Of a stretch of 64,000 bases of DNA, positions 19,028 to 45,609 are shown piece after piece (position 1 is the first letter of the stretch; every line of letters starts with the position of its first letter). The DNA lies in assembly GCA_039809645.1 (NCBI GenBank), contig JBDHVK010000001.1, positions 32,802 to 96,801 on the forward strand, given 5' to 3'. This DNA is from Gemmatimonas sp. (GTDB taxonomy: Bacteria > Gemmatimonadota > Gemmatimonadetes > Gemmatimonadales > Gemmatimonadaceae). The position numbers were made by a program, and so were the translations under genes. A model generated the notes under the pieces. That model made no database searches. It saw nothing but the letters and a program-made list of their open reading frames with translations, and was not told where the DNA came from.

Positions 19028-19471
19028 TCACAGCTGGTGACGATACACCATCAGGGGCATGCGTACCGCCACCTGATCGTACAATCCCTGCGATACGGTG
19101 TTGGTCACGAGTGTGGTGCCGTACACATGGTCGGCACCCAGGACGGCGGCACGCGCGAAGACGGCCTCCACGAGCGCGCGCGCGACACCGCTGCGTCGGA
19201 CATCCCACGCGGTGAACACGTCGGAGAGCAGGCAGACCGGTTTCGTCCACCACGGGTGCGGATGCAGGAGGTAGTGGGCAATCCCCACCAGTCGTTCGCC
19301 CGCAAAGGCGCCGAGGCCGTGCATCGCGACCGTGTCCTGCATGAGCCGGTCCCAGGTGTCGGCAGGCGCATCCTCCGGCCACATGCCGTGATAGCCGAGG
19401 TACTCCAGCCAGAGCGGGCGCCACGCCTCGTGATCGGCGGGCCCGAGGGGCCGAATCGCGACCGCGGTCAC
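19028..19471 (-). CDS. GNAT family N-acetyltransferase
   Basis: 147 aa. The acetyl-CoA binding segment (VRRSGVARALVEAVFARA) sits in a typical GNAT layout. The GTG start overlaps the kinase stop (GTGA). Confidence 0.8.
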   Translation of the reverse strand: MTAVAIRPLGPADHEAWRPLWLEYLGYHGMWPEDAPADTWDRLMQDTVAMHGLGAFAGERLVGIAHYLLHPHPWWTKPVCLLSDVFTAWDVRRSGVARALVEAVFARAAVLGADHVYGTTLVTNTVSQGLYDQVAVRMPLMVYRHQL

Positions 19472-21522
19472 GGCTCGCAGCGCAGCTTCTTCTCGAGGGC
19501 GGTGCGGTTCTCCCGCAGGGTCGCCGGCGTCGCGGCGCCGGCGGTCGCCTGGGCGAGCAGCGTGCAGGCCTTCGACTTGTCGCCGAGAATGGCGTACGAC
19601 GTGCCCAGATAGAGCGAGGCCCAGCCAAGCTCCACGCCATTGTGCAAGCGCGGCAGCAGCGCCTGCACGTCGCGAATGAGCGACCTGGCGCGCGCACGGC
19701 GCGTGCTTTCATTGCGGCTCGTCAGGTCGGCCTGCGCATCGCTGATGACCGTGGTGAGCGCGATCGACGCCTCGGCCTCGGCCGACAGGCGCGGCGCGCG
19801 AGCCGAGTCGCGCTCGTCGCGCGCCGTCGCCGCCTTTGGACGCGTGGTCGAATCGGCGGCACGACGGACGCGGGATTTGGTGTCACCGGTGTCGCGGGAG
19901 ACGGCGACTGGCGCTGACGTCGGCGAGCGAACCGGAGCCGTGGCCATCGTTCCCCCACTGGCCCGTGCCCGCGCCATCGTGCTGTCCGGCTTCTTCGTGA
20001 GCGGACGGGTCGTGTCCATGGCATCGGTCTGCGCGGGCGTGCCCGGACGCGCGGCCGTTGGTGACGCCACGAAGGCAGTGTCCGCGACGCTCGCCGCCGG
20101 TGCTGCCGCACTCGGGTCGGCGTTGGTCGCGGCCACGCGCGGCGCGGCCGGCTCGCGCCTGGCGAGAACCACGGCGATGAGCAGGATGGCGGCGATGGCG
20201 CCGACGAGCACGAACAGCGGAATGCGACGTCCCTTGTGCGCGAGCGCGAGCTCCACGGTGGTTTGGACCGCGTCGTCGGAGCGCGCCGCCGGAGCCGCGG
20301 TGCTGAACGCCGACGTCGACGTCTCGAGGAGCCGCGCTCCGCTGCCGACGGTTGTTTCACCCAGCAGCGTGGAGCGGGTAACCGAGCGCGTCGTGGAGTC
20401 GGCCGCGTCAGGCTGATCCGCGAGTGAGGTGTCAGGAGGTAGGGTGCCTTCGTCGTCCAGTGACGGCACGGCCGCCGGAGTAGGTTCCGTCTGCGCGAGC
20501 AAGACCGGTTCCTCCGTCTGCGCCAACAGCGCGGACGCAAGGGTGGGCGGCGTGAAGGCCATCGTCGCCGATGGACCGTCGATGATCCGTCGGAGTTCGC
20601 GCGCGAAGGCGACCGCTGACTCCGGACGGACGGCAGGATCGCGCACCAACGTGCGGGAGAAGAGCGCCTGCAGCGGCGCCGGCCACGCGATATCCGGTCG
20701 GACCTCGATGAACTCTCGCGCCGGCGCCGACAGGCGTGCGAGCATCTCTTCCTGCTCGGAGCTGCCCACGAAGGCGCGCGCGCCCGTGAGCATACTGAAC
20801 GCCAGCAGCGCCAGCGAGTACACATCGCTGCGGGCGTCGAGTGCCTGACCCAGCAGCTGCTCGGGACTCATCCACTTGGGGGTTCCGATTGCAAACCCGG
20901 GGGCGGTCTTGCCTTCGGCGTCGGAATCCTCGAGCAGCTTGGCGATGCCGAAGTCGAGAACCTTCACCCGTACGCTTCCATCGTCTTCTTCGACGACCAT
21001 CACGTTCTCAGGTTTGAGATCGCGGTGGACGATGCCCAACCGATGCGCGGCGTTCAGGCCCTCGGCGATCATGTGCACGATCGCCGCCGTCTCGCTGAAA
21101 GACAGGGTGCCACGCGCATCGAGCAGCTGGCGCAGCGTTCGGCCGTTCACGTACTCCATCACCAGAAACGCCCGCCCGTCGGTCATGAAGCCGAAGTCCG
21201 TGACGCGGGCGACCCGATCATGATTGATACGGCTCGCGGCCTCCGCTTCATGGCGGAAGCGCCGCACGACCGATGGATCCGTCGTACCGGCATCACGGAG
21301 CACCTTGATGGCAACCTGTTGCGGAAGACGGACATCGCGCGCGAGGTAGACGGCGGCCATGCCCCCTTCGCCGAGCAGATCGGTAGCGACGTACCGTTCA
21401 CAAAACAGTTCGCCGATCAGATCGTCGCCCGTCACGGTCGCACGAAGCGCCGACCCGTCGCGCGGGCAGAACGTGGCCGCGTCGGGAAACGTCTCGCCAC
21501 AGAGCAGGCAGGTCTTGGACAC
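19468..21522 (-). CDS. Ser/Thr protein kinase (PpkA-like by position) with N-terminal zinc ribbon, TM and C-terminal helical periplasmic domain
   Basis: Zinc ribbon CLLCGETFPDAATFCPRDG. Kinase motifs GEGGMAAVYLA, VAIKVL, HRDLKPENV, DFGIAK and SPEQ. TM IPLFVLVGAIAAILLIAVVLA. The ATG directly abuts the tssM stop codon. Confidence 0.9.
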   Translation of the reverse strand: MSKTCLLCGETFPDAATFCPRDGSALRATVTGDDLIGELFCERYVATDLLGEGGMAAVYLARDVRLPQQVAIKVLRDAGTTDPSVVRRFRHEAEAASRINHDRVARVTDFGFMTDGRAFLVMEYVNGRTLRQLLDARGTLSFSETAAIVHMIAEGLNAAHRLGIVHRDLKPENVMVVEEDDGSVRVKVLDFGIAKLLEDSDAEGKTAPGFAIGTPKWMSPEQLLGQALDARSDVYSLALLAFSMLTGARAFVGSSEQEEMLARLSAPAREFIEVRPDIAWPAPLQALFSRTLVRDPAVRPESAVAFARELRRIIDGPSATMAFTPPTLASALLAQTEEPVLLAQTEPTPAAVPSLDDEGTLPPDTSLADQPDAADSTTRSVTRSTLLGETTVGSGARLLETSTSAFSTAAPAARSDDAVQTTVELALAHKGRRIPLFVLVGAIAAILLIAVVLARREPAAPRVAATNADPSAAAPAASVADTAFVASPTAARPGTPAQTDAMDTTRPLTKKPDSTMARARASGGTMATAPVRSPTSAPVAVSRDTGDTKSRVRRAADSTTRPKAATARDERDSARAPRLSAEAEASIALTTVISDAQADLTSRNESTRRARARSLIRDVQALLPRLHNGVELGWASLYLGTSYAILGDKSKACTLLAQATAGAATPATLRENRTALEKKLRCEP

Positions 21523-24500
21523 CTACTGCGCGACCTGTGGTGCACAGGTGAACCCGCCCAGCCATCCCCGCTTGAGGACTGGGGCGCCCGACGCATCGAG
21601 GAACTCGAAGTCGATGACGATGGGGACCCCGTTGCGCTTGTTGGCCGGCGCGGGCCAGGTCACGTGCACGATGCGTCCACTCGACTCGCTTGCACCCTTG
21701 GCCACCAGACGGAACAGCGCCCACTCACCGGTAGCCGACGCGATCAGCGTGGGTCGCTCGTTGCCGAAGCGCGCCTCGATGGAGGCGGAATTGCCCTCGG
21801 GCAGTTGGGGCCAGGTGACCACGTTCTGCGGGCTCTTGCTGTCGAAGCGCGACTCCTTCGGCCCGTGCTTGAAGATCACCAGCGGCGTTTCCGCACTGGT
21901 CTGGGCGATGGCCGTCCAGCGCAAGCGCGGCGTTGGATTGATGTCGTTGTAGAGCGCGTTCGACACGATGGCCGCGCGATTGAAGAACTCCACGAAGCCG
22001 GGAAGCAGTGAGACACCGCGTACCGAACGCGCGACCCAGCGGCCATCGCGCTTGACGAGATATGGCGCGAGTTGCTCTCGATAGAATTGCCACAGCTTCC
22101 CAGTCCCGGGTGCGAGCAGCGCGTTCACGTCGGCCATCGAGGCCTCGGCCGTCGCGTTCGGGTTGAAGGGATACTTGTTGAGCATGGGTGCCATCTCGGT
22201 GCAGAGGCGCGCATTGCGATCGTTGAGCGCCTGGGCCGCGGGGCTCGAAGCCGGCTGTACGTCGGCCACGCGCGTGCCCCGCGGACGCTGCGCTGCCGCA
22301 GTGCGCAGCACGCCGTCAGCGCCGTTGATCGGCTCGAGCAGCAGGCGCTCCACCGGCTGCGCCATGGAGGGGACGGTCGTGAGGATGAACGCTTGCGAGA
22401 CCCGCTTGGTCGCGGCACGCGCGTTCGTCACGCTGCCCCCGGCCGCCAGCGCGGCGCGATTGAGCTCCTCGGTGGAGGCACTGTCACCAGTGTACGGCAC
22501 GTTCGCCACCTGGGCGATGGCCCCCTGCAATCCGAGCAGGCCGTCCACGTAGGGCTGATTCTTCTCCGACACGATGCGCCCGACGACCTCCGGTGGCGTG
22601 ACCGCGTGCACCGGTTGGAAACGGGTCCGCGAGAGCGAGTCGAAGTTGGTGTTGAACGCCGTGACCTGCAGCAGTTCGAGCAGCGGCGAGTTGTTGTTCG
22701 ACAGCACCTCCAGCTTGTACGCGGCGTCCTTGAGGGACGACGGGCGCACCACCACTGCGGACTGTACGACCTGACGCCAGATGCGCGCGTAGTCGTCGGC
22801 ATAGCGCAACTGCAGCATGGACTTGTCGACCGACTGGCTCTTGGGATACTCGCCCAGCACCCAGAGCTCGCCATCGTAAGTGCTGTCGCTGACGAGTCGG
22901 GCCCGCATCAGCGCCGCGCCTCGGGCGGTGAATGATCCCGGCACCTCGGTCATCGACGTGAAGACCCCAGGCGTCTGCCGCAGCTTGAGCGCCGGCACTT
23001 CCTTGTCCGTACGCGTCAGCATGTTGCGATAGATCTGCTCGCCACCGGCGAATCGGTGCAGGAAGTCGCGCGTGCGATTTCGTAGCGGAAGATCAGGATT
23101 GCGCGGCCAGGGGTTGTACCAGGGCAACTCGCTGGAGTAGAAGTCGAACTGCCGCATGGACAGCTCGGTCACGTCCGCTTCCAGCGTCTGACCGCGTCGC
23201 CCGCTCTCGTACAACACCGGGGACAGGAACTCCTTGGTGCTGCGTGCCGACTCCGACGTGGTGATCAGGTACGCCTTGAGCCAGTTGTAGGACTTGGCGT
23301 AGTCGTTGGTCGGGCCGGGAAGTTCGGGGAGGGCCTTGAGCGAGTCGACAAGGGTATTGAATCCGGTCTGGAACAGCGCGAGCCGGAAGCCTTCATACCA
23401 GATCGGGCGCGCAGCATCGAAGAGCGCCGGGCCCCGCCAGAGCCCGAAGCGCATGAGGAGCGGCGGCCCCTCCTGCATGACGGCGCGAATGGTATCCAGG
23501 CGTGCGCGCAGCAGATCAAGGCTGCGCAGCGCCTGTGCACTCGGATAGGTAATCGTTCCCGGCGTATTGGGGATAACCGGCAACGACGCCACCGCGCGGG
23601 CAGCGTCTGCCACGCGCGCTGACAGCGCCCGGTTGCGCGCCCAGGACGTCGTGATGCTCGCGAGCAGCAATGCGGTGAGACCGATCGCGCCGCTCAGCAG
23701 CAGGCGACGCGTGGCCTGCACCTTGACGCCGCCTCGGGCCACAAGCGCCGCGCTGGCGTCCGCGAGGACGACGTCGCGCAGGAAGCGATCGAGAAACACC
23801 CACTCCGGCACCTTGCGGGACACCGCGTGCGACAGCGCCGCCTGCGCCGCGACCTCGCGCTCGTTCAGGATGCGTGTGGCGTTCGCCGCGACGGCGGTGG
23901 CCGGCACGACCGGCTTGGCCACGTCGCTCACCACGACCGGCCGCGCCCCAGTGAAGTAGAAGCCGCGCAGCTGCGGACTCGAGCCAAGCGCGGTGGGGCG
24001 GCACAGATCCACGAGAAACGACGTGACGGCCGGCGCCAGCTTGCGCAGCTCGCGCGGCAATTCATACGCCTGGTACCGCCGCTCCTGCCGTTGCTCGCGA
24101 CCGAGAACGTTCACCCGCCGAAGCGCGATCGTGTCGGCGACCTGTCGGAACGCCAGGTCGATGCGCGGCGCGAGGCGATCGGCGTAGTTGCCGGGGTTCG
24201 CGTCGGCGTCGAAGGGCAGGGTTGCACCCAGCGGCGCCTTCAGCTCGTCGCGCGTGAACACCGAGATCCACGGCTCGAACTGCGGCACCTTGTCCATGCG
24301 CGTGAACATCACATAGACCGGGAGCCCAAGCCCCAGCTCGAGCGAGGCTTCGGCCAGGCGCTGACGGAGGGTGTGCTGGAGTTCCTCCAGCTGCTGGCCA
24401 CCGGCTCCGGCGTAGAACAGGTCGATGGGCACGCAGACGACGGCCGAGCGCGCGGCCGGCTCTCCGCGTCCGAGCGCGGCGCGCAACCGCGGCGCGCGCA

Positions 24501-25023
24501 GGGCGCGGACCACCTTGGCCCAGCGCGCCACGTCAACCAACAGCGGTCCGCCCAGTTCCGTGATCACCGCTTGCTGCATGACCCAGACGTTCACCGTGCG
24601 CGTCGGTTGCGGTGATTCGTTGGGCGCGGTGGGCGCGAGCCCGGCGAGCAGTTCGGGCGCGCCCCCCGAGCGCGCCACCACCGAGGTCTTCGCGCTTCCC
24701 TGCGCGCCCAGCACGAGAACCATTGGACGCTGCAGGAACGTGCCATGCGGGAGTCGCGTGCTCGCGCCGTGAATGGCGAGCAGGACATCGTCGCCCGTAT
24801 CCATCGGCACATCCTCCTGGGGCCGCAGATACCAGAGCAACGCGCCGGCGGCAATCGCACCGAGCACCACGAGGCCCACTCGCATGGTCCAGCGGCCGGT
24901 GGCATCCAGCGTCAGCGTCCGATCCAGAATGATCAGCAGCAGCAGAAAGGCCGCGAACGTGACGCCGGCCAGGAGCCAGCGCGTCGACCGCTTTTGTGCG
25001 ACGACCGCACCCTGGGGAGTCAT
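21523..25023 (-). CDS. tssM: Type VI secretion membrane subunit TssM (IcmF)
   Basis: About 1166 aa. N-terminal TMs, Walker A VLGAQGSAKTS, and the long IcmF-like periplasmic region. Start chosen at ATG 25023, which forms an ATGA overlap with the tssL stop. Confidence 0.9.
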   Translation of the reverse strand: MTPQGAVVAQKRSTRWLLAGVTFAAFLLLLIILDRTLTLDATGRWTMRVGLVVLGAIAAGALLWYLRPQEDVPMDTGDDVLLAIHGASTRLPHGTFLQRPMVLVLGAQGSAKTSVVARSGGAPELLAGLAPTAPNESPQPTRTVNVWVMQQAVITELGGPLLVDVARWAKVVRALRAPRLRAALGRGEPAARSAVVCVPIDLFYAGAGGQQLEELQHTLRQRLAEASLELGLGLPVYVMFTRMDKVPQFEPWISVFTRDELKAPLGATLPFDADANPGNYADRLAPRIDLAFRQVADTIALRRVNVLGREQRQERRYQAYELPRELRKLAPAVTSFLVDLCRPTALGSSPQLRGFYFTGARPVVVSDVAKPVVPATAVAANATRILNEREVAAQAALSHAVSRKVPEWVFLDRFLRDVVLADASAALVARGGVKVQATRRLLLSGAIGLTALLLASITTSWARNRALSARVADAARAVASLPVIPNTPGTITYPSAQALRSLDLLRARLDTIRAVMQEGPPLLMRFGLWRGPALFDAARPIWYEGFRLALFQTGFNTLVDSLKALPELPGPTNDYAKSYNWLKAYLITTSESARSTKEFLSPVLYESGRRGQTLEADVTELSMRQFDFYSSELPWYNPWPRNPDLPLRNRTRDFLHRFAGGEQIYRNMLTRTDKEVPALKLRQTPGVFTSMTEVPGSFTARGAALMRARLVSDSTYDGELWVLGEYPKSQSVDKSMLQLRYADDYARIWRQVVQSAVVVRPSSLKDAAYKLEVLSNNNSPLLELLQVTAFNTNFDSLSRTRFQPVHAVTPPEVVGRIVSEKNQPYVDGLLGLQGAIAQVANVPYTGDSASTEELNRAALAAGGSVTNARAATKRVSQAFILTTVPSMAQPVERLLLEPINGADGVLRTAAAQRPRGTRVADVQPASSPAAQALNDRNARLCTEMAPMLNKYPFNPNATAEASMADVNALLAPGTGKLWQFYREQLAPYLVKRDGRWVARSVRGVSLLPGFVEFFNRAAIVSNALYNDINPTPRLRWTAIAQTSAETPLVIFKHGPKESRFDSKSPQNVVTWPQLPEGNSASIEARFGNERPTLIASATGEWALFRLVAKGASESSGRIVHVTWPAPANKRNGVPIVIDFEFLDASGAPVLKRGWLGGFTCAPQVAQ

Positions 25024-25748
25024 CGGGGCGTCGGCGCCGCGATCGGCGACGTGATCGCCGACGCGGGCAGGAGGCGTCGAATACCTTCGGACATGCTGCG
25101 CAGGGCGACGCCGTACGACACCCACAGCACCAGCAGCAGCGCCGCGCCGCCGATGGCCGCGTAGGAGAGCCGCACCATCCACGGATCGCGATGATTCACC
25201 CGATCCTGCGGTGGCATCCACGACGGCGCGAGATCACCCAGCGGCCCGCGCAGGCGTCCCAGACGCTCGTCGATCCGCGCCGTGATCGCGTGCAGCTGCC
25301 CGTTCTCCATCGAGCCGTACTTGCCGTGAAACCCCAGCAGGAGGCACAGCTGATGCACCTCGAGCAGCTCGGCCAGTTCAGCCGAGTCGCCCCGGGCCAG
25401 CAGCTGTTCGATGTGCTGAAAGACCCATTCCCCACCCATGTGCGCGCCGAACAGCTCGTCCTGCAACGGACGACGCGCCCAGTCGGCGAACGCCGGACTG
25501 CGAAGGTTGAGCACGGACTCGTCGAGGAACGACACCACGGCAAAGATCGCGATCCGCGCATCCTGCGCCGTGAAGCCGAACGCGATGGCGTCCTGCTCGG
25601 CTCGGGCCAGGAGACTCGTGACATGACCGCGGAATGCGAGCGCGTCGGAGATCGGCTGTTCGTTGGCGCGCAGCCGCACCACGGCCGTCAGAAACTCCTG
25701 GAGGGCAATGGCGAGGCGCCCGGGAGCTGCGTGTGTTACCGCCGTCAC
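25020..25748 (-). CDS. tssL: Type VI secretion membrane subunit TssL (DotU family), no OmpA/PG-binding extension
   Basis: DotU-like core (ARIAIFAVVSFLDESVLN...HQLCLLLGFHGKY) and a single C-terminal TM. Start assigned to GTG 25748, 19 nt after the tssK stop. The track ORF start at 25865 overlaps tssK. Confidence 0.85.
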   Translation of the reverse strand: MTAVTHAAPGRLAIALQEFLTAVVRLRANEQPISDALAFRGHVTSLLARAEQDAIAFGFTAQDARIAIFAVVSFLDESVLNLRSPAFADWARRPLQDELFGAHMGGEWVFQHIEQLLARGDSAELAELLEVHQLCLLLGFHGKYGSMENGQLHAITARIDERLGRLRGPLGDLAPSWMPPQDRVNHRDPWMVRLSYAAIGGAALLLVLWVSYGVALRSMSEGIRRLLPASAITSPIAAPTPR

Positions 25749-25767
25749 GAGCCGGTGGGAGTGAGAG

Positions 25768-27171
25768 TCATTCGGGGAGCAGGACCGCCACTTCGAGGTA
25801 CGCGCCCGGAATGCCCTGTGGCACGTAGACGCCGAGTTCCTGCGTCTTGGTGAGCGACGTGGCACAGCCGCCGGTCATGGTGAACTCGAAGTAGGTGAGA
25901 TCGACCTTGGGCGCGATCGCCGATGGCGGCACGGGGATGTGGATCGTCGGCAATCCATTCCATGCACGGTTCACGAGCTCCAGCACGTACGCACTGGCGC
26001 ACGACTTGGTGAGCCGTTGCACCCGATCGATCAGGTCCGCACGCGGAAGATCGGCGCGCACCGCGAGGAACCAGCGCGTGCCGGGCAGGAACGCGCGCGG
26101 ATCGGCGATGCGGGCCGTATGCAGAATGTCCGTCGACTGCTGCAGCGGAACGATGAGTGCCCGCGTGGACACGACGGCCTCGAGTTGCGCCTGAATCCGG
26201 TGCTCGAGCGCGGCGAATACTTCGGTCAGGTCGTCGTGGTCGTAGGCGGGCAGCGTGCGGGCGGTCGCGCCGATGGCGAACGTCGACAGTGCACCGGCCA
26301 GACGCGAGAGCTCGAGAAAGAGCTGCTCGGGATGGGCTGTGCGCATCAGTAACTGATGTCGCAGCGGGGCCTCCGCCGAGCGGATGGCGTGCAAGAGCCA
26401 GTGCGTGGCGAGTTCGTTCCCCGCATACGCCGCCGCGCCGCCGACGGCGCCGATCGGCGCCTGCGACAGCGAGGCGGCGAGCGCACCGCCCTTGCTTTCC
26501 ACGAGCGTGACCGTCCGACGTGCGAGCTCCATCAGCCGCGCACTCGACCCGATCTGCAGCGTGGGTGGCACGAACGCCGCATCCGGCACGAAATGCCCGC
26601 GCCCGTCGCGTCGGACACGCGCCACGGGCATCGAGATGACATCATCGGTGACTTCTTCATCGAGCAGGAGATGGAGATTGCGCGCGGCAAACCGCACGTC
26701 GAGTGGATCGCGACCCGTCGCTTCATCCACCACACGCGCTTCTACCACCTGATAACGCGCAAAAGCCGGCCGAATCATGTCATCGGTGTGTTCGGATCCG
26801 GGGATTTCGGTCACGTTGGCCGCGTCTGAACGCCAGCGCGGGATCGCGAGATGCACGGTGTGCATGTCGCGTGTGGGGGAGAAGCGCTCGGCGAGTGCGA
26901 TCGGTGCGGGGAGGCCGTCGCCGCCTGGCGCATGGACCACTGTGCCGTCGGGAAGTACGCCGCGCAGCAGGACGAGGGCGAACGTCCCATTGCGCAGGGC
27001 ATCGCTGTCGACGGCGATCGCCGAGAGGCCGTAGGCGTACGCGATCAGCAGATCCAGTGTCCGGGTCGTCTGCTCTTCCTGATAGCGGCGCTGCGCCTGA
27101 AAGTGTTGCGGGGTCAGGTGCATGCCGTCTTCCCAGACGACGCGACGCGAGGGAACGGCGGGGAGTTGCAT
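25768..27171 (-). CDS. tssK: Type VI secretion baseplate subunit TssK (paralog 1)
   Basis: N-terminal VVWEDGMHLTPQHFQAQRRY signature, about 467 aa, with a C-terminal LGVYVP...LEVAVLL. Confidence 0.9.
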   Translation of the reverse strand: MQLPAVPSRRVVWEDGMHLTPQHFQAQRRYQEEQTTRTLDLLIAYAYGLSAIAVDSDALRNGTFALVLLRGVLPDGTVVHAPGGDGLPAPIALAERFSPTRDMHTVHLAIPRWRSDAANVTEIPGSEHTDDMIRPAFARYQVVEARVVDEATGRDPLDVRFAARNLHLLLDEEVTDDVISMPVARVRRDGRGHFVPDAAFVPPTLQIGSSARLMELARRTVTLVESKGGALAASLSQAPIGAVGGAAAYAGNELATHWLLHAIRSAEAPLRHQLLMRTAHPEQLFLELSRLAGALSTFAIGATARTLPAYDHDDLTEVFAALEHRIQAQLEAVVSTRALIVPLQQSTDILHTARIADPRAFLPGTRWFLAVRADLPRADLIDRVQRLTKSCASAYVLELVNRAWNGLPTIHIPVPPSAIAPKVDLTYFEFTMTGGCATSLTKTQELGVYVPQGIPGAYLEVAVLLPE

Positions 27172-27198
27172 GAGATTCTCCGCTGCGGCAAAAAGAGG

Positions 27199-27218
27199 GA
27201 TGCGTGCTGCAACGCATC
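27199..27218. promoter_or_regulatory. Inverted repeat in the divergent tssK1 / pseudokinase intergenic region (candidate operator)
   Basis: GATGCGT-gctgca-ACGCATC lies 28 nt upstream of the tssK1 start. Two further GATGCG hexamers occur near 27240 and 27302. Confidence 0.25.
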
Positions 27219-30030: not shown

Positions 30031-30060
30031 GGCGATAACCTATCGCCGCACCGACGGAGT

Positions 30061-30163
30061 TGTCATGCGCACGCGGTGCCGACGGGGCCATGACATGATT
30101 TGCCGGCCTTTTGCGCGTTACGGGGTGAGGGGCAGGGTCTGGCTCCTCCGCTCTCCTCACCCC
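30061..30163. promoter_or_regulatory. Two inverted repeats in the divergent tssK2 / tssB intergenic region
   Basis: TGTCATG (30061-67) pairs with CATGACA (30089-95). GGGGTGAGG (30122-30) pairs with CCTCACCCC (30155-63), just upstream of the tssB ATG at 30191. Confidence 0.25.
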
Positions 30164-30190
30164 TACGCGTCCCGAGCCGGAGTCGCCCGC

Positions 30191-32766: not shown

Positions 32767-32786
32767 GCGGTTCGGTGGCCTCCTCC

Positions 32787-33494: not shown

Positions 33495-33541
33495 CTCCCC
33501 CCGACGCGTGCCGGCGTCTGTCCCCGTCCCGACCCCCTGAG

Positions 33542-35434: not shown

Positions 35435-35451
35435 CTGGACGTCGCTGATCA

Positions 35452-35943
35452 ATGGCGCGCACCGAACTCGAACGCACCGTTCAGCCGTCGCTTCTCGACC
35501 GCCTCACGGACGAGGAACCGCGGGTGCCCGCCGACCGCGCAACCACGCGCGACGCATCGGCGCGGGCGTTCCGCACGTCGGTCCAGCGTGACGTCGAGTA
35601 TCTGCTCAACACGCGCCGCACGATCGTCCAGCCCGCTGAACGCCAGGTGCAGCTCATGCGTTCGGTGCACCAGTACGGCTTGCCGGACATGACCGGACTC
35701 TCGTTCAGCTCACCGGAGGGACGCGAGCAGTTGGCGGAGGCGATCCTGGATACACTGCGCCGCTTCGAGCCGCGCCTGTCCGACGTATCGCTCACGCTCA
35801 AGGAGTCGGAGGACGGGGACACGTCACAGGTCCGCTTCGCGATTGCCGCGACGCTGCTCATGGACCCGAGTCCCGAGCAGGTGTTGTTCGACACCGTCCT
35901 GGACGTGGCGACCGGCAACTATGCGCTGGGTGACCGCTCCTGA
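35452..35943 (+). CDS. tssE: Type VI secretion baseplate subunit TssE (gp25-like)
   Basis: 163 aa. SLLDRLTDEEP...VQRDVEYLLNTRR is the typical TssE/GPW-gp25 pattern. Its stop overlaps the tssF ATG by 1 nt. Confidence 0.9.
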   Translation: MARTELERTVQPSLLDRLTDEEPRVPADRATTRDASARAFRTSVQRDVEYLLNTRRTIVQPAERQVQLMRSVHQYGLPDMTGLSFSSPEGREQLAEAILDTLRRFEPRLSDVSLTLKESEDGDTSQVRFAIAATLLMDPSPEQVLFDTVLDVATGNYALGDRS

Positions 35944-37787
35944 TGTCGAACGACCTGCTGCAGTACTATGAGCGCGAGTTGACCTATCTGCGCAAGCTCG
36001 GCGGGGAGTTTGCGCAGCGCTATCCGAAGGTGGCCGCTCGGCTGCAACTCGAGGCCGGCAAGACGGAAGATCCGCACGTTGAACGACTGCTGGAGGGCTT
36101 TGCGTTCCTCGCCGCCCGTATCCATCGGCGACTCGACGACGACTTTCCGGAGATCTCCGAGGGGTTGCTCGAGATGCTGCATCCGCAGCTTGTGCGGCCG
36201 GTGCCGTCGATGTGCATCGTGGACATGCCGCTCGATCCGACGCAGGGCCGGCTCCCCGAGGGATTCAGGGTGCGCCGCGGCAGTGTCCTGCATTCCCGGC
36301 CGGTGCAGGGCGTGCCGTGCATCTTCCGCACGGCGTACGACACCACCCTGTGGCCGCTGCGGATCACGGGCGCCGAGCTCACCTCCATCGATCGCGCCAC
36401 GCCCGGCGTTCGGCTGCGCGACGGCGTCGGAGCCATTCGGATCCAACTTCAGGCGTACGACGGTGTCAAGCTGCACGAGTTGGCGCTTGACGCACTGCGT
36501 TTGCATCTCGCCGGTGACAGCACGGTAACGGACACGCTGTACGAGCTGCTGCTCAACAACAGCGCGCAGGTTGCAGTGCGCAATCCCGAGCGTCCATCAC
36601 AGGCCCCGGTGCTGCTCGGCGGCGGCAGGATCACGCCGGTCGGCTTTTCGCCCGATGAGTTGCTGCTTCCCTATCCGACCCGGGCCTTTGCCGGATTCAG
36701 TCTGCTGCTCGAGCTGTTCACGTTTCCCGAGAAGTTTCACTTCGTGGACGTGCACGGAGTGGGAGCGGCGCTGCGCACGCTCGGGGTGACGCACCGGGCA
36801 GAGGTGACGGTGCTGCTGTCGCCGTTCGAGCGTGCCGATCGGCGGCAGGCACTCGAACTCGGAATGTCGGCAAGCACCTTCCGCCCGGCCGCGGTCCCCG
36901 CGGTGAATCTGTTCGAAGAGACCGCCGAGCCGATTCTCCTGACCGAGCGGTCGTTCGAGCATCTCGTCGTCGCCGATGCTCGTCGCCGCCTCGAGACCGA
37001 GGTGTGGGCGATCGACACGGTGAAACTGGTGGAGCAGGGCGCCGGCAAGGTTCGCGAGGTCGCGCCGCTCTACTCGCAGAAGCACGGGGCTCGGGGTGCG
37101 GAGACGCAGCTGTTCTGGCATGCGGCGCGCAAGCCGTCCACCTGGCGCACCGATCATGGCACCGAACTGCATCTGTCGTTCATGGATTTGTCGGGGACCG
37201 TGCGCGTGCCCGACGTGGATGTCGCCTCGCTGCAGGTGACGTGCTTCAACGGCGATCTCCCCAGTCGCCTCCCGTTCGGTGTCGATGAACGGGGCGACTT
37301 CGATCTGATCGGTGGCGGACCGGTCCCGAATATCCGCTGTCTGCTCGCGCCGACCAAGGCCCTGCAGCCGGCGCTCGGAAGTGCGCTGCTCTGGCGCATG
37401 ATCTCGTCGTTGTCCCTGAATCATCTGTCGCTCGCGGAGGGCGGCCCCGAGGCGCTGCAGGAGCTGCTCCGATTGCACAACGTCGGCAACACACTCAGTG
37501 CGGACCAGCGAATCGATGGCCTGGTGGGCGTCCGCGGAACACCATCCTTCGCGCGTGTGAGCAGCGAACACGGTATCGCCTTCGTGCGGGGTCGGAAGAT
37601 CGAACTCGAGTTCGACGAAGAGAAGTATCCCGGCGGCGGCCTCTATCTGTTCGCAAGCGTGATGGAACGCTTTCTCGCGCTCTACGCCTCGATGAACAGC
37701 TTCACGCAGGTATCGGTACGTTCACGGCAGCGACGCAAGCAGGTCACCGAATGGCCGCCGCGCGCCGGCTGGCGCGCCCTGCTGTGA
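35943..37787 (+). CDS. tssF: Type VI secretion baseplate subunit TssF
   Basis: 614 aa. N-terminal LLQYYERELTYLRKLGGEFAQRYPKVAARL...DPHVERLLEGFAFLAARI. Confidence 0.93.
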   Translation: MSNDLLQYYERELTYLRKLGGEFAQRYPKVAARLQLEAGKTEDPHVERLLEGFAFLAARIHRRLDDDFPEISEGLLEMLHPQLVRPVPSMCIVDMPLDPTQGRLPEGFRVRRGSVLHSRPVQGVPCIFRTAYDTTLWPLRITGAELTSIDRATPGVRLRDGVGAIRIQLQAYDGVKLHELALDALRLHLAGDSTVTDTLYELLLNNSAQVAVRNPERPSQAPVLLGGGRITPVGFSPDELLLPYPTRAFAGFSLLLELFTFPEKFHFVDVHGVGAALRTLGVTHRAEVTVLLSPFERADRRQALELGMSASTFRPAAVPAVNLFEETAEPILLTERSFEHLVVADARRRLETEVWAIDTVKLVEQGAGKVREVAPLYSQKHGARGAETQLFWHAARKPSTWRTDHGTELHLSFMDLSGTVRVPDVDVASLQVTCFNGDLPSRLPFGVDERGDFDLIGGGPVPNIRCLLAPTKALQPALGSALLWRMISSLSLNHLSLAEGGPEALQELLRLHNVGNTLSADQRIDGLVGVRGTPSFARVSSEHGIAFVRGRKIELEFDEEKYPGGGLYLFASVMERFLALYASMNSFTQVSVRSRQRRKQVTEWPPRAGWRALL

Positions 37788-38863
37788 CCGCCACCGTGTC
37801 GGCCGCCGCGACGCCTCCGGACGGGGCGGAGACGCTCAAGCGCGTCCTCGAGCGCGACGGCACCAGCTTCGAGTTCGTGCAGGTCATGCGGCTGCTCATG
37901 CGGCTCTATCCGGATGCCACGCCAGTGGGCGGTTGGGACGACCCCTCACGTGAGGTCGCGCGAGTCAGTGTGCCGCCCGCACTGGCGTTCCCGCCAGCCG
38001 AACTATCGCGTCTCGACCTGCCGGACGAGGCGGACGAGGCCCCGGATGACGATCCGCGGTCATTCGGCCGTCGCCGACGGACGCAGGCGGCCATCGGCGT
38101 CCGCTTCTTCGGGTTGACGGGGCCTCAGGCGGTGCTGCCGCATGTCTACACCGAGCACGCCGCCCACCGCGCGCGGGCACGCGATACCGCCTTCCGGGAT
38201 TTCGTCGATCTCTTTCACCATCGCGCAATCTCGCTCTTCTATCGTGCGTGGGAGCGTCATCATACGATCGTGCCCGCCGAACGGGGCGCAGACGATCGCA
38301 TTCAGCACCATCTGCTCGATCTCGTCGGCGTGGGGACTCAGGCGACGCGACAACGCCTTGCCATTCCCACCGGCGCGCTCGCGTACTACGCGGGCCTGCT
38401 CGCCATGCGCACGCGACCGGCCATCGGACTGGGACAGGTCATCAGCGACTACTTCGGTGTGACGGTCACGGTCGAGCAGTTCGTTGGCGAGTGGCAGCCG
38501 ATACGTGGCGGTGGACAGGTCTGCGTTGGTTCCGATGATCTCGACGGTCGCCTCGGCGCGGGCGTGATCGGGGACGCCGTCTTCGACCCGATGGCGCTGG
38601 TCAAGCTGCGGATCGGACCGCTCAGCCGTGTCCAGTTCGATCGGTTTCTTCCCGGCGGTGCGGATCATGACGCGCTGGGGCAACTGACCCGCTTCTACGC
38701 GGACGACCAGGTCGGCGCCTGCATCCAGCTGGTCCTCGCGCGCGATGAGGTGCCGGGCGCGCAGCTCAGCGCGGCCGGCGCGCCGACGCTTGGATTCGGC
38801 ACGTGGCTGCGGGCGAAGCCGCGTGCCACCGATGCCGACGATGTGCAGTTCACTCTCCGCTGA
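37751..38863 (+). CDS. tssG: Type VI secretion baseplate subunit TssG
   Basis: FEFVQVMRLLMRLYP and FFGLTGPQAVLPHVYTE...FHHRAISLFYRAW motifs. The true start may be GTG 37784 (GTGA overlap with the tssF stop) rather than 37751. Confidence 0.9.
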   Translation: MAAARRLARPAVTATVSAAATPPDGAETLKRVLERDGTSFEFVQVMRLLMRLYPDATPVGGWDDPSREVARVSVPPALAFPPAELSRLDLPDEADEAPDDDPRSFGRRRRTQAAIGVRFFGLTGPQAVLPHVYTEHAAHRARARDTAFRDFVDLFHHRAISLFYRAWERHHTIVPAERGADDRIQHHLLDLVGVGTQATRQRLAIPTGALAYYAGLLAMRTRPAIGLGQVISDYFGVTVTVEQFVGEWQPIRGGGQVCVGSDDLDGRLGAGVIGDAVFDPMALVKLRIGPLSRVQFDRFLPGGADHDALGQLTRFYADDQVGACIQLVLARDEVPGAQLSAAGAPTLGFGTWLRAKPRATDADDVQFTLR

Positions 38864-38901
38864 CGCCCCCGCCACTCGCTTCCCTTCGTCCTGGATACGT
38901 C

Positions 38902-41595
<2,694 letters not shown>

Positions 41596-41598
41596 GCC

Positions 41599-43812
41599 GT
41601 GGCCAACCCGTCGCAGCGCACACAGGACTGGTCGCAGGAGCATCGCCCGTTTCGCATCTACACGCCGCTGGGGAAGGACGTCCTCATGCTCACGGCGTTT
41701 CAGGGTGAAGAGCGGATCTCGCAGCTCTATAAGTACACGGTGTCGGCCATCAGCAAGCGGCCCGATATCGAGGCCAAGGATCTCCTGCTCAAGCCGGTGC
41801 GATTGGCCCTGCGGCTGTCCGACAAGAACGATCGCGACATTCACGGCATCGTGAGTCGGTTGACCCGCGGGAGTCGCGCGCCCCTTGGATACACCGCGTA
41901 CGAGATCGACGTGGTGCCGCAGCATTGGCAGATGACGCTCGACACCGGATTCGCGATCTATCAGAACAAGAGTGTGCGCGAGATCTGCGACGAGGTGCTC
42001 AAGGGGACGTCGCACGAATGGAAGATGCTGCGCACGCTCGAGCCGCGACCCTACACGTTCCGGTATCGCGAGAGCCGCTGGAACTTCGTCGCCCGCCTGC
42101 TCGAGCAGGAGGGGATCTGGTTCCGTTTCGAGCACAAGGGCAGTGACGACAAGCTGGTCCTCGCCGACTCGGTCGCGTCGGCGCAGGCGCAGTGGGGCGT
42201 GACGAAGCTTCACTACACGGGCCCGAACGTAAAAGAGCACCGGCTCACCGATCTCCGCATGGACGCGGTCCCGTACGTGGCCGAGAGTCGCGTGCGGACG
42301 GCCAGCGAGTTTCTGCCGTCGCAGAACATCAATGCCGTGACCCCGTCGCAAGGCGCCTTCAAGCCTCCCGCCGAGGTGAAGGCGTATCACTTCGAGCAGC
42401 AGATGACGGCACACCGCACGGGGATCGACCACCACGGCGGCCTCACCCCGGCGGACGCGGCCAAACTGCCCCCCGATACCAAGGTGTACGCGCGGCTCCG
42501 CCAGGAGGCGGCCGAAGCGGGCGCCGTGCGCTTCAGTGGGGACTCGCGCTACGTCGGCATGGAAGTGGGCGCGCGAGTGGAGGTGACGGATCACCCGAAC
42601 CCGACGCTCAACGCCGCCCTCTTCCTCACCGCCGTCTTCCATAGCGGCAGCAACGGCTCGTACGACGCCGGAGACGAAGGAGCACCGACCTACAAGAACA
42701 GCTTCGAAGCCATTATCGCCGGCACGCCGTACCGACCGCCGCGCGTCACGCCCTGGCCGGTCGTGGGGGGCGCGCACACGGGGGTGGTGGTTGGCCCCGA
42801 AGGCGAGGAGATCTACACCGACAAGCACGGACGCGTGCAGGTGGTGATGAAGTGGGACCGGGACAATGATCGCACGCTCGAGCACTCCTGCTGGATGCGG
42901 GTGGCGCAGTCGCTCGCCGGCAACCGCTTTGGCGCGGTCTTTCTCCCCCGGGTTGGACACGAGGTGATGGTCGAGTTCCTCGATGGGAACCCCGACAACC
43001 CGATCGTGGTCGGGAGTCTCTACAACGCCGACAACCTGCCGCCGTGGGAGCTGCCGAAGCACAAGACGCAGTCCGGCGTGCGGACGCAGAGCACACTCAA
43101 GGGGACCACGCTCGAGACGTACAACGAGCTGCGCTTCGAGGACAGGATCAAGGAGGAGCAGATCTATGTCCAGGCCGAGAAGGACCTCGACACCCTCGTC
43201 AAGCACAATGAAACGCGCATGGTGCGGAACAATCGCACCACCACCATTCACGTGAATGACGAGAAGACCGTCGAGAAAGGTCACGACTACACGACGGTCG
43301 AGGAGGGCGAGCAGGAGATCAAGGTGCTGAAGAATCAGCGCTCGCTCTACGTGAACAAGAACAACAACATCACCGTGGACGGCAGCGAAATCATCCACGT
43401 AAAGCAGGACCGTCAGCTCCAGGTTGGCGGGAACCAGCAGCACCAGGTGCAGGGAAACAACAGCACCGCAGTACAGGGGTCGCAGGACTGCACGGTGCAG
43501 GGCGATGACACCACCACGGTGGCCGGTGGCAATTCGTCGCTCACGGTGAACCAGGGCAACCTCGCCATGGGCGCGACGGTTGGCAGTGTCTCGATCCGAT
43601 CGGGAGGCGGTTCGGTCTCCATCGAGGGCATGCAACAGATCGAGCTCAAGGTGGGCGGCAGTTCCATCGTCATCGCGCCGGGCGGGATCACCATTCGGGC
43701 GCCGTCGGTCACCGTCGAGGCGGCGGGCGCCGCGCAGATCAACAGCGCGGTCACCCAGATCAACGGCAGCGGCATGGTCCGCATCAACGGCGGCATCACG
43801 CTCATCAACTGA
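41599..43812 (+). CDS. vgrG: Type VI secretion spike protein VgrG (TssI), no recognisable C-terminal toxin extension
   Basis: 737 aa. gp27-like N-terminus, gp5 OB-fold region (GHEVMVEFLDGNPDNPIVVGSLYN), and a C-terminal beta-helix repeat region ending without an extra domain. GTG start. Confidence 0.93.
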   Translation: MANPSQRTQDWSQEHRPFRIYTPLGKDVLMLTAFQGEERISQLYKYTVSAISKRPDIEAKDLLLKPVRLALRLSDKNDRDIHGIVSRLTRGSRAPLGYTAYEIDVVPQHWQMTLDTGFAIYQNKSVREICDEVLKGTSHEWKMLRTLEPRPYTFRYRESRWNFVARLLEQEGIWFRFEHKGSDDKLVLADSVASAQAQWGVTKLHYTGPNVKEHRLTDLRMDAVPYVAESRVRTASEFLPSQNINAVTPSQGAFKPPAEVKAYHFEQQMTAHRTGIDHHGGLTPADAAKLPPDTKVYARLRQEAAEAGAVRFSGDSRYVGMEVGARVEVTDHPNPTLNAALFLTAVFHSGSNGSYDAGDEGAPTYKNSFEAIIAGTPYRPPRVTPWPVVGGAHTGVVVGPEGEEIYTDKHGRVQVVMKWDRDNDRTLEHSCWMRVAQSLAGNRFGAVFLPRVGHEVMVEFLDGNPDNPIVVGSLYNADNLPPWELPKHKTQSGVRTQSTLKGTTLETYNELRFEDRIKEEQIYVQAEKDLDTLVKHNETRMVRNNRTTTIHVNDEKTVEKGHDYTTVEEGEQEIKVLKNQRSLYVNKNNNITVDGSEIIHVKQDRQLQVGGNQQHQVQGNNSTAVQGSQDCTVQGDDTTTVAGGNSSLTVNQGNLAMGATVGSVSIRSGGGSVSIEGMQQIELKVGGSSIVIAPGGITIRAPSVTVEAAGAAQINSAVTQINGSGMVRINGGITLIN

Positions 43813-43821
43813 CGACGGACC

Positions 43822-44517
43822 ATGACCACCCCTCCCGTGATCGCCCCTGATCCGCTGGCGGCGCTGCCGCCGCTCGCGCGATGGCTGCTCGAGCGCTGCA
43901 AGCCGGACAACGACGCCCTCGCGCTGGTGACGCCGACCGTGACCATCGAGGCGCTCTATGCCCAGTGGATGGAGCGCAAATACTTCCCGTCGGCCATCCG
44001 TCTCATCGCGGCCGTGCTCCCAGCGCGCGAGAGCATCTGGTGGGCATGGGTGTCCGTGCGGCACAGCACGCAGGCCGTCGGCGGGACGCCTCCCACCGCC
44101 GCGCAGCACGCCACGCTCGGGCATGTCGAGCGATGGATCGTTCGACCCGATGATCCCACGCGACGCGAAGTCTGGGAGTCAGCCAACAAGGCCGGTCTCA
44201 ACTCGGCCGTCGGCATGGTCGGTGCGGCGGTCTTCCTGAGTGGCGTCACGGTGGGCCCGAGCGACGCGCCGGTGGTCCCGCCACCGCCCGGCGCGATTGT
44301 CCCGATCATTCCCGGCGCGATCCTCGTGGCAGCGGCCACCAACAGCGACCCCGCGCGCATCGAGCCGACGACTGTCGCGTTTGCCGCGCAGGGGCTGGAG
44401 GTGGTCAAGCGCCTGGGCGGGTGGGATGTCGCCGCTCGCCAGGCATACGACACACATCAGCGCGCCGAGCAAGAGTATGCGCAACTCCTTGGATCCTCCA
44501 ACGCGGCCACGAGCTGA
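43822..44517 (+). CDS. Hypothetical VgrG/PAAR-associated protein (possible adaptor, with two hydrophobic segments)
   Basis: 231-aa ORF, 9 nt after vgrG and 6 nt before the PAAR gene. Hydrophobic stretches SAVGMVGAAVFLSGVTV and AIVPIIPGAILVAAAT. No family recognised with certainty. Confidence 0.65.
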   Translation: MTTPPVIAPDPLAALPPLARWLLERCKPDNDALALVTPTVTIEALYAQWMERKYFPSAIRLIAAVLPARESIWWAWVSVRHSTQAVGGTPPTAAQHATLGHVERWIVRPDDPTRREVWESANKAGLNSAVGMVGAAVFLSGVTVGPSDAPVVPPPPGAIVPIIPGAILVAAATNSDPARIEPTTVAFAAQGLEVVKRLGGWDVAARQAYDTHQRAEQEYAQLLGSSNAATS

Positions 44518-44523
44518 TCATCC

Positions 44524-44808
44524 ATGAGCAAGGCATCCGCACGAATCGGTGATGACCACGTGTGCCCGCGCGCGGGCCATGTCGGCGGACCGATCATCAC
44601 CTCGGCCGCGCCCACCGTTGTCATTGTCGGCCAGCAGGCGGGGACGGTGACCAGCACCTGCAAGTGCCGGGGAGGCGCCAATGACAAAGTCGTACAAGGG
44701 TCGGCCACCGTGCTGTTGAGCGGCCACAGCGCCGCGCGCATCGGTGATCGAACGGAACACGGCGGGAAGATCGTGACCGGTGCCGCGAACGTGGTCATCG
44801 GCGGATGA
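44524..44808 (+). CDS. PAAR-domain protein (stand-alone spike tip)
   Basis: 94 aa. ARIGDDHVCP...AARIGDRTEHGGKIVTGAANVVIGG are the typical PAAR repeats. Confidence 0.9.
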   Translation: MSKASARIGDDHVCPRAGHVGGPIITSAAPTVVIVGQQAGTVTSTCKCRGGANDKVVQGSATVLLSGHSAARIGDRTEHGGKIVTGAANVVIGG

Positions 44809-44901
44809 GGTCACGTGCGGTCATGACGTTCCCCACGGGCCGGCACGCGGTGCCGGACGCTCAAGGGTCAATGGCAACTCTCAACCGACGCGGAGACGCG
44901 C

Positions 44902-45609
44902 ATGAGTCACGCTTCCGATTTCACATCACCGGCTTCCCACGCCGATCCCAGCCTGGGTATCGGCTTCGGTCCGGAGCAATTCGTCCGCTGCGAGATCGGA
45001 CATTTCGTCATGGGCTCTGAACTCGATGCTGACAATCCACCGCACGACGTCACGCTCCGACGCAGCTTTCTGTTGCAACGCACGCCGGTGACACAGGCGC
45101 AGTGGGAAGCGGTGATGGGGAGCAATCCGAGCGACTTCAGCGGCGACGTCTTGCGACCCGTCGAGAGCGTGTCGTGGACCGACACGCAGGCGTTTCTCGC
45201 GGCGCTGGAATCGAGGAGCGGCGTGAAACACCGACTCCCGACCGACGCCGAGTGGGAGTATGCGTGCCGAGCCGGTGGCAGCGGCAACATCAGCGGTGAT
45301 CTCGATCCCCACGCGTGGTTTCGCGCGAACAGTCAGGGGACGACGCATCCGGTGGCGACGCGCACGCCCAATGCCTGGGGACTCTACGACATGCACGGCA
45401 ACGTGTGCGAATGGGTCAACGACTACTACAGCCCGATCAGCACCGACCGTGTCGTTGATCCCACGGGGAGCGCCTACTCGACCACGCGCGTGATACGGGG
45501 TGGCTCCTGGTTCAACCAGGCTATCGTGGCGCGTGGCATGCCACGTGGGAGTCTGGACGACGAGGCGCGGAACAACATGACGGGCTTCCGGCTGGTGCGC
45601 CTCGGATAA
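44902..45609 (+). CDS. FGE-sulfatase/SUMF1-domain protein lacking the catalytic cysteine pair (TagR-like candidate)
   Basis: FGE-family motifs RTPVTQAQWEAVMG, ESVSWTDTQAFL, RLPTDAEWEYACRAG, WGLYDMHGNVCEWVND and RVIRGGSW. The segment after GGSW (FNQAIVARGMPRG) has no Cys-x4-Cys. No N-terminal signal peptide. Confidence 0.8.
   Translation: MSHASDFTSPASHADPSLGIGFGPEQFVRCEIGHFVMGSELDADNPPHDVTLRRSFLLQRTPVTQAQWEAVMGSNPSDFSGDVLRPVESVSWTDTQAFLAALESRSGVKHRLPTDAEWEYACRAGGSGNISGDLDPHAWFRANSQGTTHPVATRTPNAWGLYDMHGNVCEWVNDYYSPISTDRVVDPTGSAYSTTRVIRGGSWFNQAIVARGMPRGSLDDEARNNMTGFRLVRLG

Follow-up and report, generated by a model that had tools for sequence, protein, structure and literature searches.

Gene Content of the Type VI Secretion Locus

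The stretch of DNA analyzed here, hereafter the window, comprises 64,000 nucleotides of contig C1 of a Gemmatimonas genome (4.65 Mb in 342 contigs, 93% complete) and carries a type VI secretion system (T6SS) at positions 19028-45609. The same stretch recurs in activated-sludge and wastewater metagenomes (11 studies). Gene calls for the window proteins, made with Pfam and NCBIfam models, identify 12 of the 13 core T6SS genes in intact form, together with tagJ, a PAAR gene, the gene of a transmembrane Ser/Thr kinase and a second tssK. The proteins looked for in a canonical T6SS-i, namely TssA, TssB, TssC, Hcp, TssE, TssF, TssG, ClpV, VgrG, TssK, TssL and TssM, were all found, all models are matched over nearly their whole length, and not a single reading frame is broken. 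This bears out an earlier reading of the letters alone (the sequence-only reading), which had listed the same core genes as well as tagJ and PAAR. The locus is a complete T6SS-i of a lineage-specific architecture common to Gemmatimonadaceae and Terriglobia and is probably functional. What sets this variant apart is a pair of TssK proteins and a protein here called PsK, rather than the lack of TssJ or where the kinase gene lies in the source genome.

The membrane-complex genes lie on the minus strand in an operon headed by the first tssK paralog (TssK1, 25768..27171; PF05936, E 3e-113; TIGR03353, 319 bits). It is followed by tssL (DotU, 25020..25865, minus strand; PF09850, E 1.1e-43), whose true start is probably near 25760 and whose product has one C-terminal transmembrane (TM) helix and no peptidoglycan-binding domain, and by tssM (21523..25221, minus strand), which probably starts near 25023. 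TssM matches IcmF-related_N, IcmF-related, IcmF_helical and, weakly, IcmF_C (26.2 bits against a cut-off of 26.7), while TIGR03348 is covered from 115 to 1166 of 1168; inspection of its sequence shows three TM helices, a canonical C-terminus and no Gly-Ser linker. The Hanks-type Ser/Thr kinase (STK, P0001) is encoded next, at 19468..21522 on the minus strand (Pkinase, E 1.1e-43). Upstream of tssK1, the gene of PsK (P0002) occupies 27344..28642 on the plus strand, and the second tssK paralog (TssK2, 28684..30030, minus strand; PF05936, E 5e-128) stands as a single gene divergent from tssB. Both the second tssK and the pseudokinase-like gene had been proposed by the sequence-only reading and are confirmed, the latter by its predicted fold.

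The plus strand encodes the sheath, tail tube, baseplate and spike. TssB (29984..30697; VipA, E 6.5e-58; true start probably near 30160) and TssC (30700..32181; VipB, E 3e-137) form the sheath, the nearest entries to TssC in the PDB being 9n4v and, in second place, Pseudomonas aeruginosa TssC1 (5n8n, 530 bits). Hcp (32251..32766, recognized by Pfam/NCBIfam), TagJ (32610..33494; ImpE and TPR) and TssA (33542..35434; ImpA_N and VasJ) follow on the same strand, in a stretch (32251..35434) where TIGR03363 also scores above its cut-off. Next come the baseplate wedge proteins TssE (35452..35943; GPW_gp25), TssF (35943..37787; T6SS_TssF, covered from 1 to 608 of 608) and TssG (37751..38863; T6SS_TssG), then ClpV (TssH, 38803..41595; AAA_2 and AAA_lid_9) and VgrG (TssI, 41599..43812; Phage_GPD, Gp5_trimer_C and DUF2345), all likewise on the plus strand.

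Conservation Across Gemmatimonadaceae and Terriglobia

Conservation was assessed in a family sample of 151 Gemmatimonadaceae genomes and a class sample of 151 genomes of Terriglobia (Acidobacteriota); the family counts for TssK, TssJ and the PsK N-lobe include the unpublished genome G174 and the Terriglobia TssK count includes G290, but no conclusion hangs on either. Searches with the window proteins (tblastn) revealed a shared gene order in 13 Gemmatimonadaceae loci, with tssB through clpV on one side and tssK2, PsK, tssK1, tssL and tssM on the other, and the same locus is present in G090, a complete single-contig genome of the same genus (4,636,964 bp). TssK was detected in 38 of the 151 family genomes, 36 of which have exactly two copies, a few kb apart, and about 16 of the 20 strongly TssK-positive Terriglobia genomes also have two. 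Loci in Terriglobia metagenome-assembled genomes (MAGs) contain an ortholog of TssK2 (46-49% identity) and a second TssK upstream of tssL-tssM. Many genera in two phyla have retained complement and order, with protein identities of 50-80%; for Gemmatimonadaceae the complement found in the window is the rule, and it is seen again in Terriglobia. A genome with a different count is G103, where five TssK matches are distributed over two contigs (C309 and C434), which suggests that it may have two copies of the T6SS.

It had been foreseen that this gene complement might turn out to be the catalogued norm of a described subtype. This proved half true: the complement is a lineage norm, yet its composition is undescribed in open-access papers and preprints, among which we found nothing on two tssK genes, on PsK or on a T6SS of Gemmatimonas. 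The finding is better put as follows: Gemmatimonadaceae and Terriglobia share a conserved T6SS variant that is so far undescribed in that literature.

The TssK Pair

Aligned end to end, the two TssK paralogs share 34% identity. Divergence restricted to one domain was considered and rejected, as identity amounts to 31-36% in shoulder, neck and head alike. From 35 TssK sequences a maximum-likelihood tree was computed with a quick search method, four Burkholderiales sequences serving as the root. In it, TssK1 of Gemmatimonadaceae is joined to the Terriglobia copy located ahead of tssL (SH-aLRT support 98) and TssK2 to the Terriglobia copy that adjoins tssB (SH-aLRT 95), all TssK1 and TssK2 sequences being united against the Burkholderiales outgroup (SH-aLRT 100). 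This grouping of each paralog across phyla implies that the duplication of TssK is older than the separation of the system between the two phyla, or its transfer between them, and that both copies have been kept since; the rooting is provisional, because the outgroup is narrow and the search was quick. Each baseplate wedge holds two non-equivalent TssK trimers, and the two paralogs may fill these two positions.

PsK, a Membrane Protein Related to Protein Kinases

The gene of PsK lies on the opposite strand in the 1.5 kb between the two tssK genes and has a coding-type GC content at third codon positions (GC3). It belongs to no Pfam or NCBIfam family, and its relatives in the databases are all annotated as 'hypothetical protein'. 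The protein consists of an N-terminal domain (residues 1-95) corresponding to a protein-kinase N-lobe only, a Pro/Ala-rich disordered region and a C-terminal TM anchor. An AF2 model of the N-terminal domain, built from an alignment of 19 sequences (pLDDT 82), shows strands beta1 to beta3, a helix (alphaC), strands beta4 and beta5 and a further helix. When it was compared with the PDB using Foldseek, the top 50 matches were all protein-kinase N-lobes; MARK2 was matched with an E value of 7e-4 (TMq about 0.6), and the match of highest identity was the MviN pseudokinase Rv3910 of Mycobacterium tuberculosis (27%, TMq 0.63). The ESM Atlas model of PsK independently matches kinases and a MurJ-kinase cluster. 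In sequence comparisons, a profile run against PDB sequences placed MARK and SnRK2 kinases just under significance (E about 0.1), with alignments that begin where the kinase domain begins and end at the hinge, while BLASTP detected no match between the PsK head and the neighboring kinase STK, and hhalign aligned the two in register, though insignificantly (probability 1.4%). The assignment to the kinase N-lobe is therefore based on structure and not on sequence. Neither a C-lobe nor a Pkinase match was found in PsK when a bilobal catalytic domain with its Gly-rich loop, VAIK lysine, HRD and DFG motifs was looked for, and the position of the VAIK lysine is occupied by a histidine that is invariant in an alignment of 22 sequences from both phyla. 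An N-lobe fold lacking both the C-lobe and this lysine indicates a protein that is derived from a kinase but is not one; PsK is thus predicted, from the modeled fold, to be a catalytically dead N-lobe protein.

The region following the head is characterized by a repeated motif. The source PsK has three copies of the form G/S-x-F-T-x-[LMV]-[FI], at residues 117, 186 and 341. In 21 scanned homologs, with 103 motif instances altogether, the consensus G-x-F-T-(Q/R)-(M/L)-F-(G/S)-A occurs in 3-10 copies, and about 12 copies were counted by eye in the homolog of locus L027. The final motif, near the C-terminal TM helix, is a variant of the form S-(D/E)-F-T-x-(M/L)-I-S. No other open reading frame (ORF) of the source genome has at least two copies, and nothing relevant to this motif was found among open-access papers and preprints.

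PsK is a conserved, T6SS-specific gene. The N-lobe profile matches 33 of the 151 family genomes, that is 33 of the 36 with two TssK and none of the 113 TssK-negative ones, and the matches lie between the two tssK genes. In Terriglobia, the same head adjoins the TssK2 ortholog in 12 loci and is connected to the Gemmatimonadaceae heads by tblastn matches with E values down to 9e-9. When 1.84 billion cluster representatives were searched with a profile, 1077 relatives came up at E <= 1e-3, of which 326 also passed E <= 1e-10. In nearly all of these proteins the domain is N-terminal, and at least two motifs are present in 82 of the 110 long ones. The homolog of Granulicella tundricola (WP_013572716, L058 23536-25986, minus strand, annotated as 'hypothetical') has ten motifs of the F-T-Q-M-F type and a C-terminal TM helix; it has no N-lobe head, which is therefore dispensable in some lineages. 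We also would like to mention that a second PsK-type N-lobe gene was observed away from the T6SS in one genome (G165:C7:276770-277069).

Kinase, Phosphatase and Components Not Detected

At the N-terminus of STK lies a Cys-pair ribbon; its kinase domain (residues 46-301) retains intact VAIK, HRDLKPEN and DFG motifs. There is a TM helix near residue 435, and roughly 230 amino acids make up a periplasmic part. By its Pkinase match, catalytic motifs and TM helix it is a transmembrane Hanks kinase of the PpkA-like type, in which Pfam detects no VWA domain. The sequence-only reading had described the kinase gene as fused into the tssM operon, which is correct for the source genome but is not a conserved feature: orthologs with 50-54% identity flank tssM in convergent orientation in three other loci (L010, L013 and L016) and in G090, a kinase also flanks tssM in L022, and only in the source genome does a same-strand kinase gene abut tssM. 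On the plasmid pACIX901 of Granulicella tundricola, a PP2C phosphatase (WP_013572720, L058 31777-32553) directly follows tssM, in the place held by the kinase in the window. A second large Ser/Thr kinase of 982 amino acids, with its kinase domain at residues 203-408, is encoded on the plus strand at 13852-16800 of the window, 2 kb from the T6SS.

As stated in the sequence-only reading, TssJ, FHA, PP2C and TagF are absent from the locus and its surroundings; searches with hidden Markov models found FHA and PP2C genes only on other contigs. TssJ was not found anywhere in the source genome (best E value of PF12790, 0.8; no match to TIGR03352), exceeds the cut-off in none of the 151 Gemmatimonadaceae genomes, although 38 of these have TssK, and is absent from three Acidobacteriota genomes that have the system. 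No ORF of the locus combines a lipobox with a coding composition. TagF was likewise not found in the source genome (best E value 0.3), nor was a Fha of the TagH type, TIGR03354 matching a generic FHA stretch on contig C144 with 42 bits against a cut-off of 120. Since this genome is 93% complete and divided into 342 contigs, genome-wide absences are to be read as 'not found' rather than as proven. It contains five PP2C genes and two FHA genes, all on contigs other than that of the T6SS. One FHA protein is an FHA-GAF-cyclase whose gene adjoins that of anthranilate synthase. The other, on C144, is small, and a kinase gene comes after its gene. The latter gene was considered as a satellite T6SS gene, a possibility that would have called the reported absence of fha into question, and was rejected, because it is spread over T6SS-positive and T6SS-negative congeners alike (5/10 and 8/14, respectively). 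The membrane complex encoded here consists of TssL and TssM only, with neither TssJ nor a lipoprotein gene in the locus. The absence of TssJ is on its own ordinary: it is lacking in 27.5% of 1096 non-Acinetobacter genomes with tssM and tssB (Kandolo et al., PMC10564176).

Accessory and Neighboring Genes

Downstream of vgrG, on the plus strand, lie genes for a DUF6931 protein (43822..44517; PF22011, E 1.2e-33) and the PAAR spike tip (44524..44808; PAAR_motif, E 2e-16), which are kept after vgrG in G090 and have orthologs in locus L061, and then a gene for an FGE-sulfatase-like protein (44902..45609, plus strand; PF03781, E 1.3e-40) without evident signal peptide. At the other end, a GNAT acetyltransferase gene (19028..19471, minus strand; PF00583, E 1.3e-9) is the last gene of the tssK1-tssM-kinase operon in the source genome only. 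As conserved parts of the system in Gemmatimonas both the FGE-like and the GNAT gene were rejected, because G090 has neither an ortholog of the former after PAAR nor a homolog of the latter at the corresponding position; the FGE-like gene is an accessory of the source genome, outside the conserved system. A Terriglobia locus has a weak GNAT match (E 5e-5) immediately after tssM (L040 20740-21339, minus strand), whose resemblance to the window's GNAT may be a coincidence.

Just past the GNAT end of the T6SS, at 16820-18445 on the minus strand, a 346-amino-acid protein with weak matches to CHAP (E 1.5e-3) and NlpC/P60 (E 6.8e-3) is encoded, followed by an ORF of 188 amino acids without a family; from these matches, the pair may represent an orphan amidase effector and its immunity gene. 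Beyond the opposite end, a protein of 1139 amino acids is encoded at 45614-49033 (minus strand), convergent with the end of the T6SS operon; it has PD40 repeats and weakly matches Peptidase_MA_2. Its neighbors are the gene of ribosomal protein L9 and other housekeeping genes, and there is no sign that it belongs to the T6SS.

A Candidate Role for PsK and Its Alternatives

Models of T6SS assembly rest almost entirely on Proteobacteria, where one TssK docks the baseplate to the TssJLM complex and Fha, PpkA and PppA gate assembly. Two phyla abundant in soil and wastewater keep another solution, in which TssK is doubled, TssJ and Fha are lacking, and a conserved membrane protein, descended from one half of a kinase, is added. 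We are highly confident of the descriptive part of this account, namely the TssJ-less TssL-TssM complex, the two TssK, the T6SS-specific PsK with its N-lobe and repeats, and the Hanks kinase or PP2C that the best-assembled loci encode beside tssM. The sequence-only reading had gone further and postulated a threonine-phosphorylation circuit wired differently from the described PpkA-Fha1-PppA and PpkA-TssL pathways. Given a kinase and a pseudokinase-like gene in a locus without the Fha1, PppA, TagF and TssJ set, this is a reasonable proposal, but the complement on which it was founded is the norm of the lineage and the absence of TssJ is common.

On balance we lean toward the view, by analogy with Fha, that PsK is a scaffold or substrate that joins the Hanks kinase or PP2C to baseplate docking within a TssJ-less T6SS with two TssK. 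PsK would sit next to TssL and TssM, its tail anchored in the inner membrane, and would be the functional counterpart of Fha1/TagH, combining a head for kinase docking with a disordered scaffold behind it. Kinases of the PknB type are activated by back-to-back dimerization of their N-lobes, and the N-lobe of PsK might dock in a similar manner on that of a Hanks kinase, here the transmembrane STK encoded next to tssM. The kinase would then phosphorylate the invariant threonine of the repeats and PP2C would reverse this modification, the phosphorylation state gating the recruitment of the baseplate to TssL and TssM via one or both TssK, each of which would occupy one TssK-trimer position per wedge. 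The disordered region and FHA domain of Fha have been reported to drive T6SS assembly, including nucleation of the membrane complex and baseplate (bioRxiv 10.1101/2023.12.21.572528). We give a phospho-switch operating via the PsK repeats somewhat less than an even chance. The most complete formulation, a distinct T6SS of Gemmatimonadota and Acidobacteriota with a heteromeric two-TssK baseplate, a TssJ-less TssL-TssM complex, a tail-anchored N-lobe pseudokinase and a threonine scaffold written by Hanks kinases and erased by PP2C, is advanced tentatively and is, taken as a whole, rather unlikely.

Several observations weigh against PsK being such a scaffold for phosphorylation. Its sequence similarity to kinases is marginal, both against the PDB and against STK. 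The threonine of the motif was imposed by the search pattern, and it may be conserved because the motif serves in binding, not because it is phosphorylated. The Granulicella homolog has no N-lobe head, three genomes with two TssK gave no N-lobe match, the orientation of the kinase gene differs between genomes, and no kinase was seen beside tssM in the Terriglobia MAG loci examined, the flanks of which are short. The sampled genomes are moreover related, hence not independent samples. Alternatively, PsK could be a purely structural adaptor whose F-T-x-M-F repeats bind TssK, TssL or TssM multivalently, perhaps as a condensate, with the N-lobe a mere protein-protein interaction module and the kinase or phosphatase regulating another target, for example TssL as in Agrobacterium. 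Strict co-occurrence of PsK with the system and its placement between the two tssK genes agree with such an adaptor, as do the retention of repeats and anchor in the headless Granulicella protein, the several Terriglobia loci without a visible kinase beside tssM, and the recruitment of T6SS parts through phase separation by the disordered region of Fha (bioRxiv 10.1101/2023.12.21.572528). We nevertheless regard it as unlikely, as it leaves aside that a kinase-derived head with an invariant histidine has been kept in two phyla, that a Hanks kinase or PP2C is located at the tssM end of the best-assembled loci, and that the motif is centered on an invariant threonine with a hydrophobic residue at position +3.

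Two further explanations concern the membrane complex and the state of the system. A TssJ equivalent might have escaped detection if it is an outer-membrane protein or a lipoprotein of highly diverged sequence with its gene at another site, or if its gene falls within the 7% of the genome that was not assembled; the membrane complex would then be conventional. The fragmented state of the assembly leaves room for this, TssJ is small and quick to diverge, and the weakness of the IcmF_C match implies that the tip of TssM has diverged. It is improbable all the same, for TssJ is also missing from complete or near-complete carriers of the system (G090, G079 and G111) as well as from the three Acidobacteriota genomes, the locus has no ORF with a lipobox, and the T6SSs of Acinetobacter and Agrobacterium work without TssJ. 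That the T6SS is decaying or silent, its odd complement marking an ongoing loss of genes of which TssJ would be an instance, is very improbable indeed in view of the 12 intact core ORFs with full model coverage, the conservation of both TssK paralogs and the maintenance of complement and order described above.

Should PsK act as an Fha-like scaffold subject to phosphorylation, the system would provide an FHA-independent phospho-switch for T6SS assembly, possibly one forming condensates. Independently of this, it is a natural experiment on the true need for TssJ and Fha, and PsK is a candidate for a new class of accessory or core-like T6SS components, with about 326 cluster representatives at E <= 1e-10, none of which is annotated. 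The question is tractable, as cultured strains, including Granulicella tundricola MP5ACTX9, carry the system, and it has a bearing on how both phyla compete in soil and activated sludge.

Comparison With Known Systems

The H1-T6SS of P. aeruginosa resembles the system of the window in its plus-strand order (tssB tssC hcp tagJ ... tssE tssF tssG clpV vgrG), in the presence of TagJ and in the tssK-tssL-tssM genes on the other strand, which end in a transmembrane Hanks kinase. The H1-like order put forward by the sequence-only reading thus holds for these features but not for tssA, which in the window follows tagJ (between tagJ and tssE) and in H1 precedes tssB. Furthermore, the window locus differs from H1 in having two TssK and no Fha1, PppA, TagF or TssJ, its kinase is without a VWA-type periplasmic domain by Pfam, and its FGE-like gene, comparable to TagR, encodes no signal peptide and is not conserved. 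PsK is built like Fha1, where a small head that interacts with the kinase precedes a long disordered stretch, but the head of PsK is a kinase N-lobe instead of an FHA domain, and PsK is membrane-anchored. A module comparable to PsK is the pseudokinase of M. tuberculosis MviN (Rv3910), which is phosphorylated by PknB and bound by FhaA; it too is a catalytically inactive kinase homolog attached to the membrane, and it provides regulatory docking within an envelope machine. Rv3910 has both lobes and is fused to a flippase, whereas PsK has the N-lobe only, repeats with a threonine motif and a tail anchor, and no FHA partner is linked to the T6SS in the source genome.

Other T6SSs dispense with TssJ by different means. 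Those of Acinetobacter and Agrobacterium tumefaciens work without a TssJ homolog (PMC10564176, PMC3702570). Acinetobacter has membrane-associated accessory proteins of its own in place of TssJ (TsmK, TslA and TagX, besides a Gly-Ser linker in TssM), whereas the window locus has no ketoacyl-synthase-like TsmK and the C-terminus of its TssM no Gly-Ser run. Agrobacterium retains Fha, a TagF-PppA fusion and a PpkA that acts on TssL. Neither of these two T6SSs is known to have a second TssK or an N-lobe protein.

Among plasmid-borne systems, TssC of the window is 58% identical to that of Ralstonia (i4b), 52% to that of Escherichia coli (i2), 48-51% to those of Rhizobium (i3) and 38% to that of Campylobacter (i1), the subtype labels being the prevalent types per family of PMC9113992 and not placements in a labeled reference tree. 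The closest of these, on the megaplasmid of Ralstonia solanacearum, shares the divergent pair of operons, with tssB tssC hcp tssE tssF tssG clpV vgrG on one side. Its other side is tssJ-tssK-tssL; TssJ is present, TssK occurs once, and the stretch lacks tagJ, PsK and a kinase gene.

Orthologous systems are carried by plasmid 1 of Gemmatirosa kalamazoonensis and by pACIX901 of Granulicella tundricola, with identities to the window of 78 and 64% for TssC and of 60 and 45% for TssK2, respectively. Their TssB proteins fall together in a branch of subtype i4b, the gene content of which was not described (PMC9113992). On the Gemmatirosa plasmid (L059, 962115-987467), tssK2 lies beside tssB and no PsK, tssK1, tssL or tssM occurs within 12 kb beyond tssK2, the second operon being located elsewhere. 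On pACIX901 the order is tssB through vgrG, tssK, an opposite-strand 'hypothetical protein', tssK, DotU, ImcF-related and PP2C, with no annotated tssJ or fha. In comparison with the window, the repeat protein of Granulicella has ten motifs and no N-lobe, its gene is separated from tssK2 by an inserted amidohydrolase gene, and tssM is followed by PP2C instead of the kinase.

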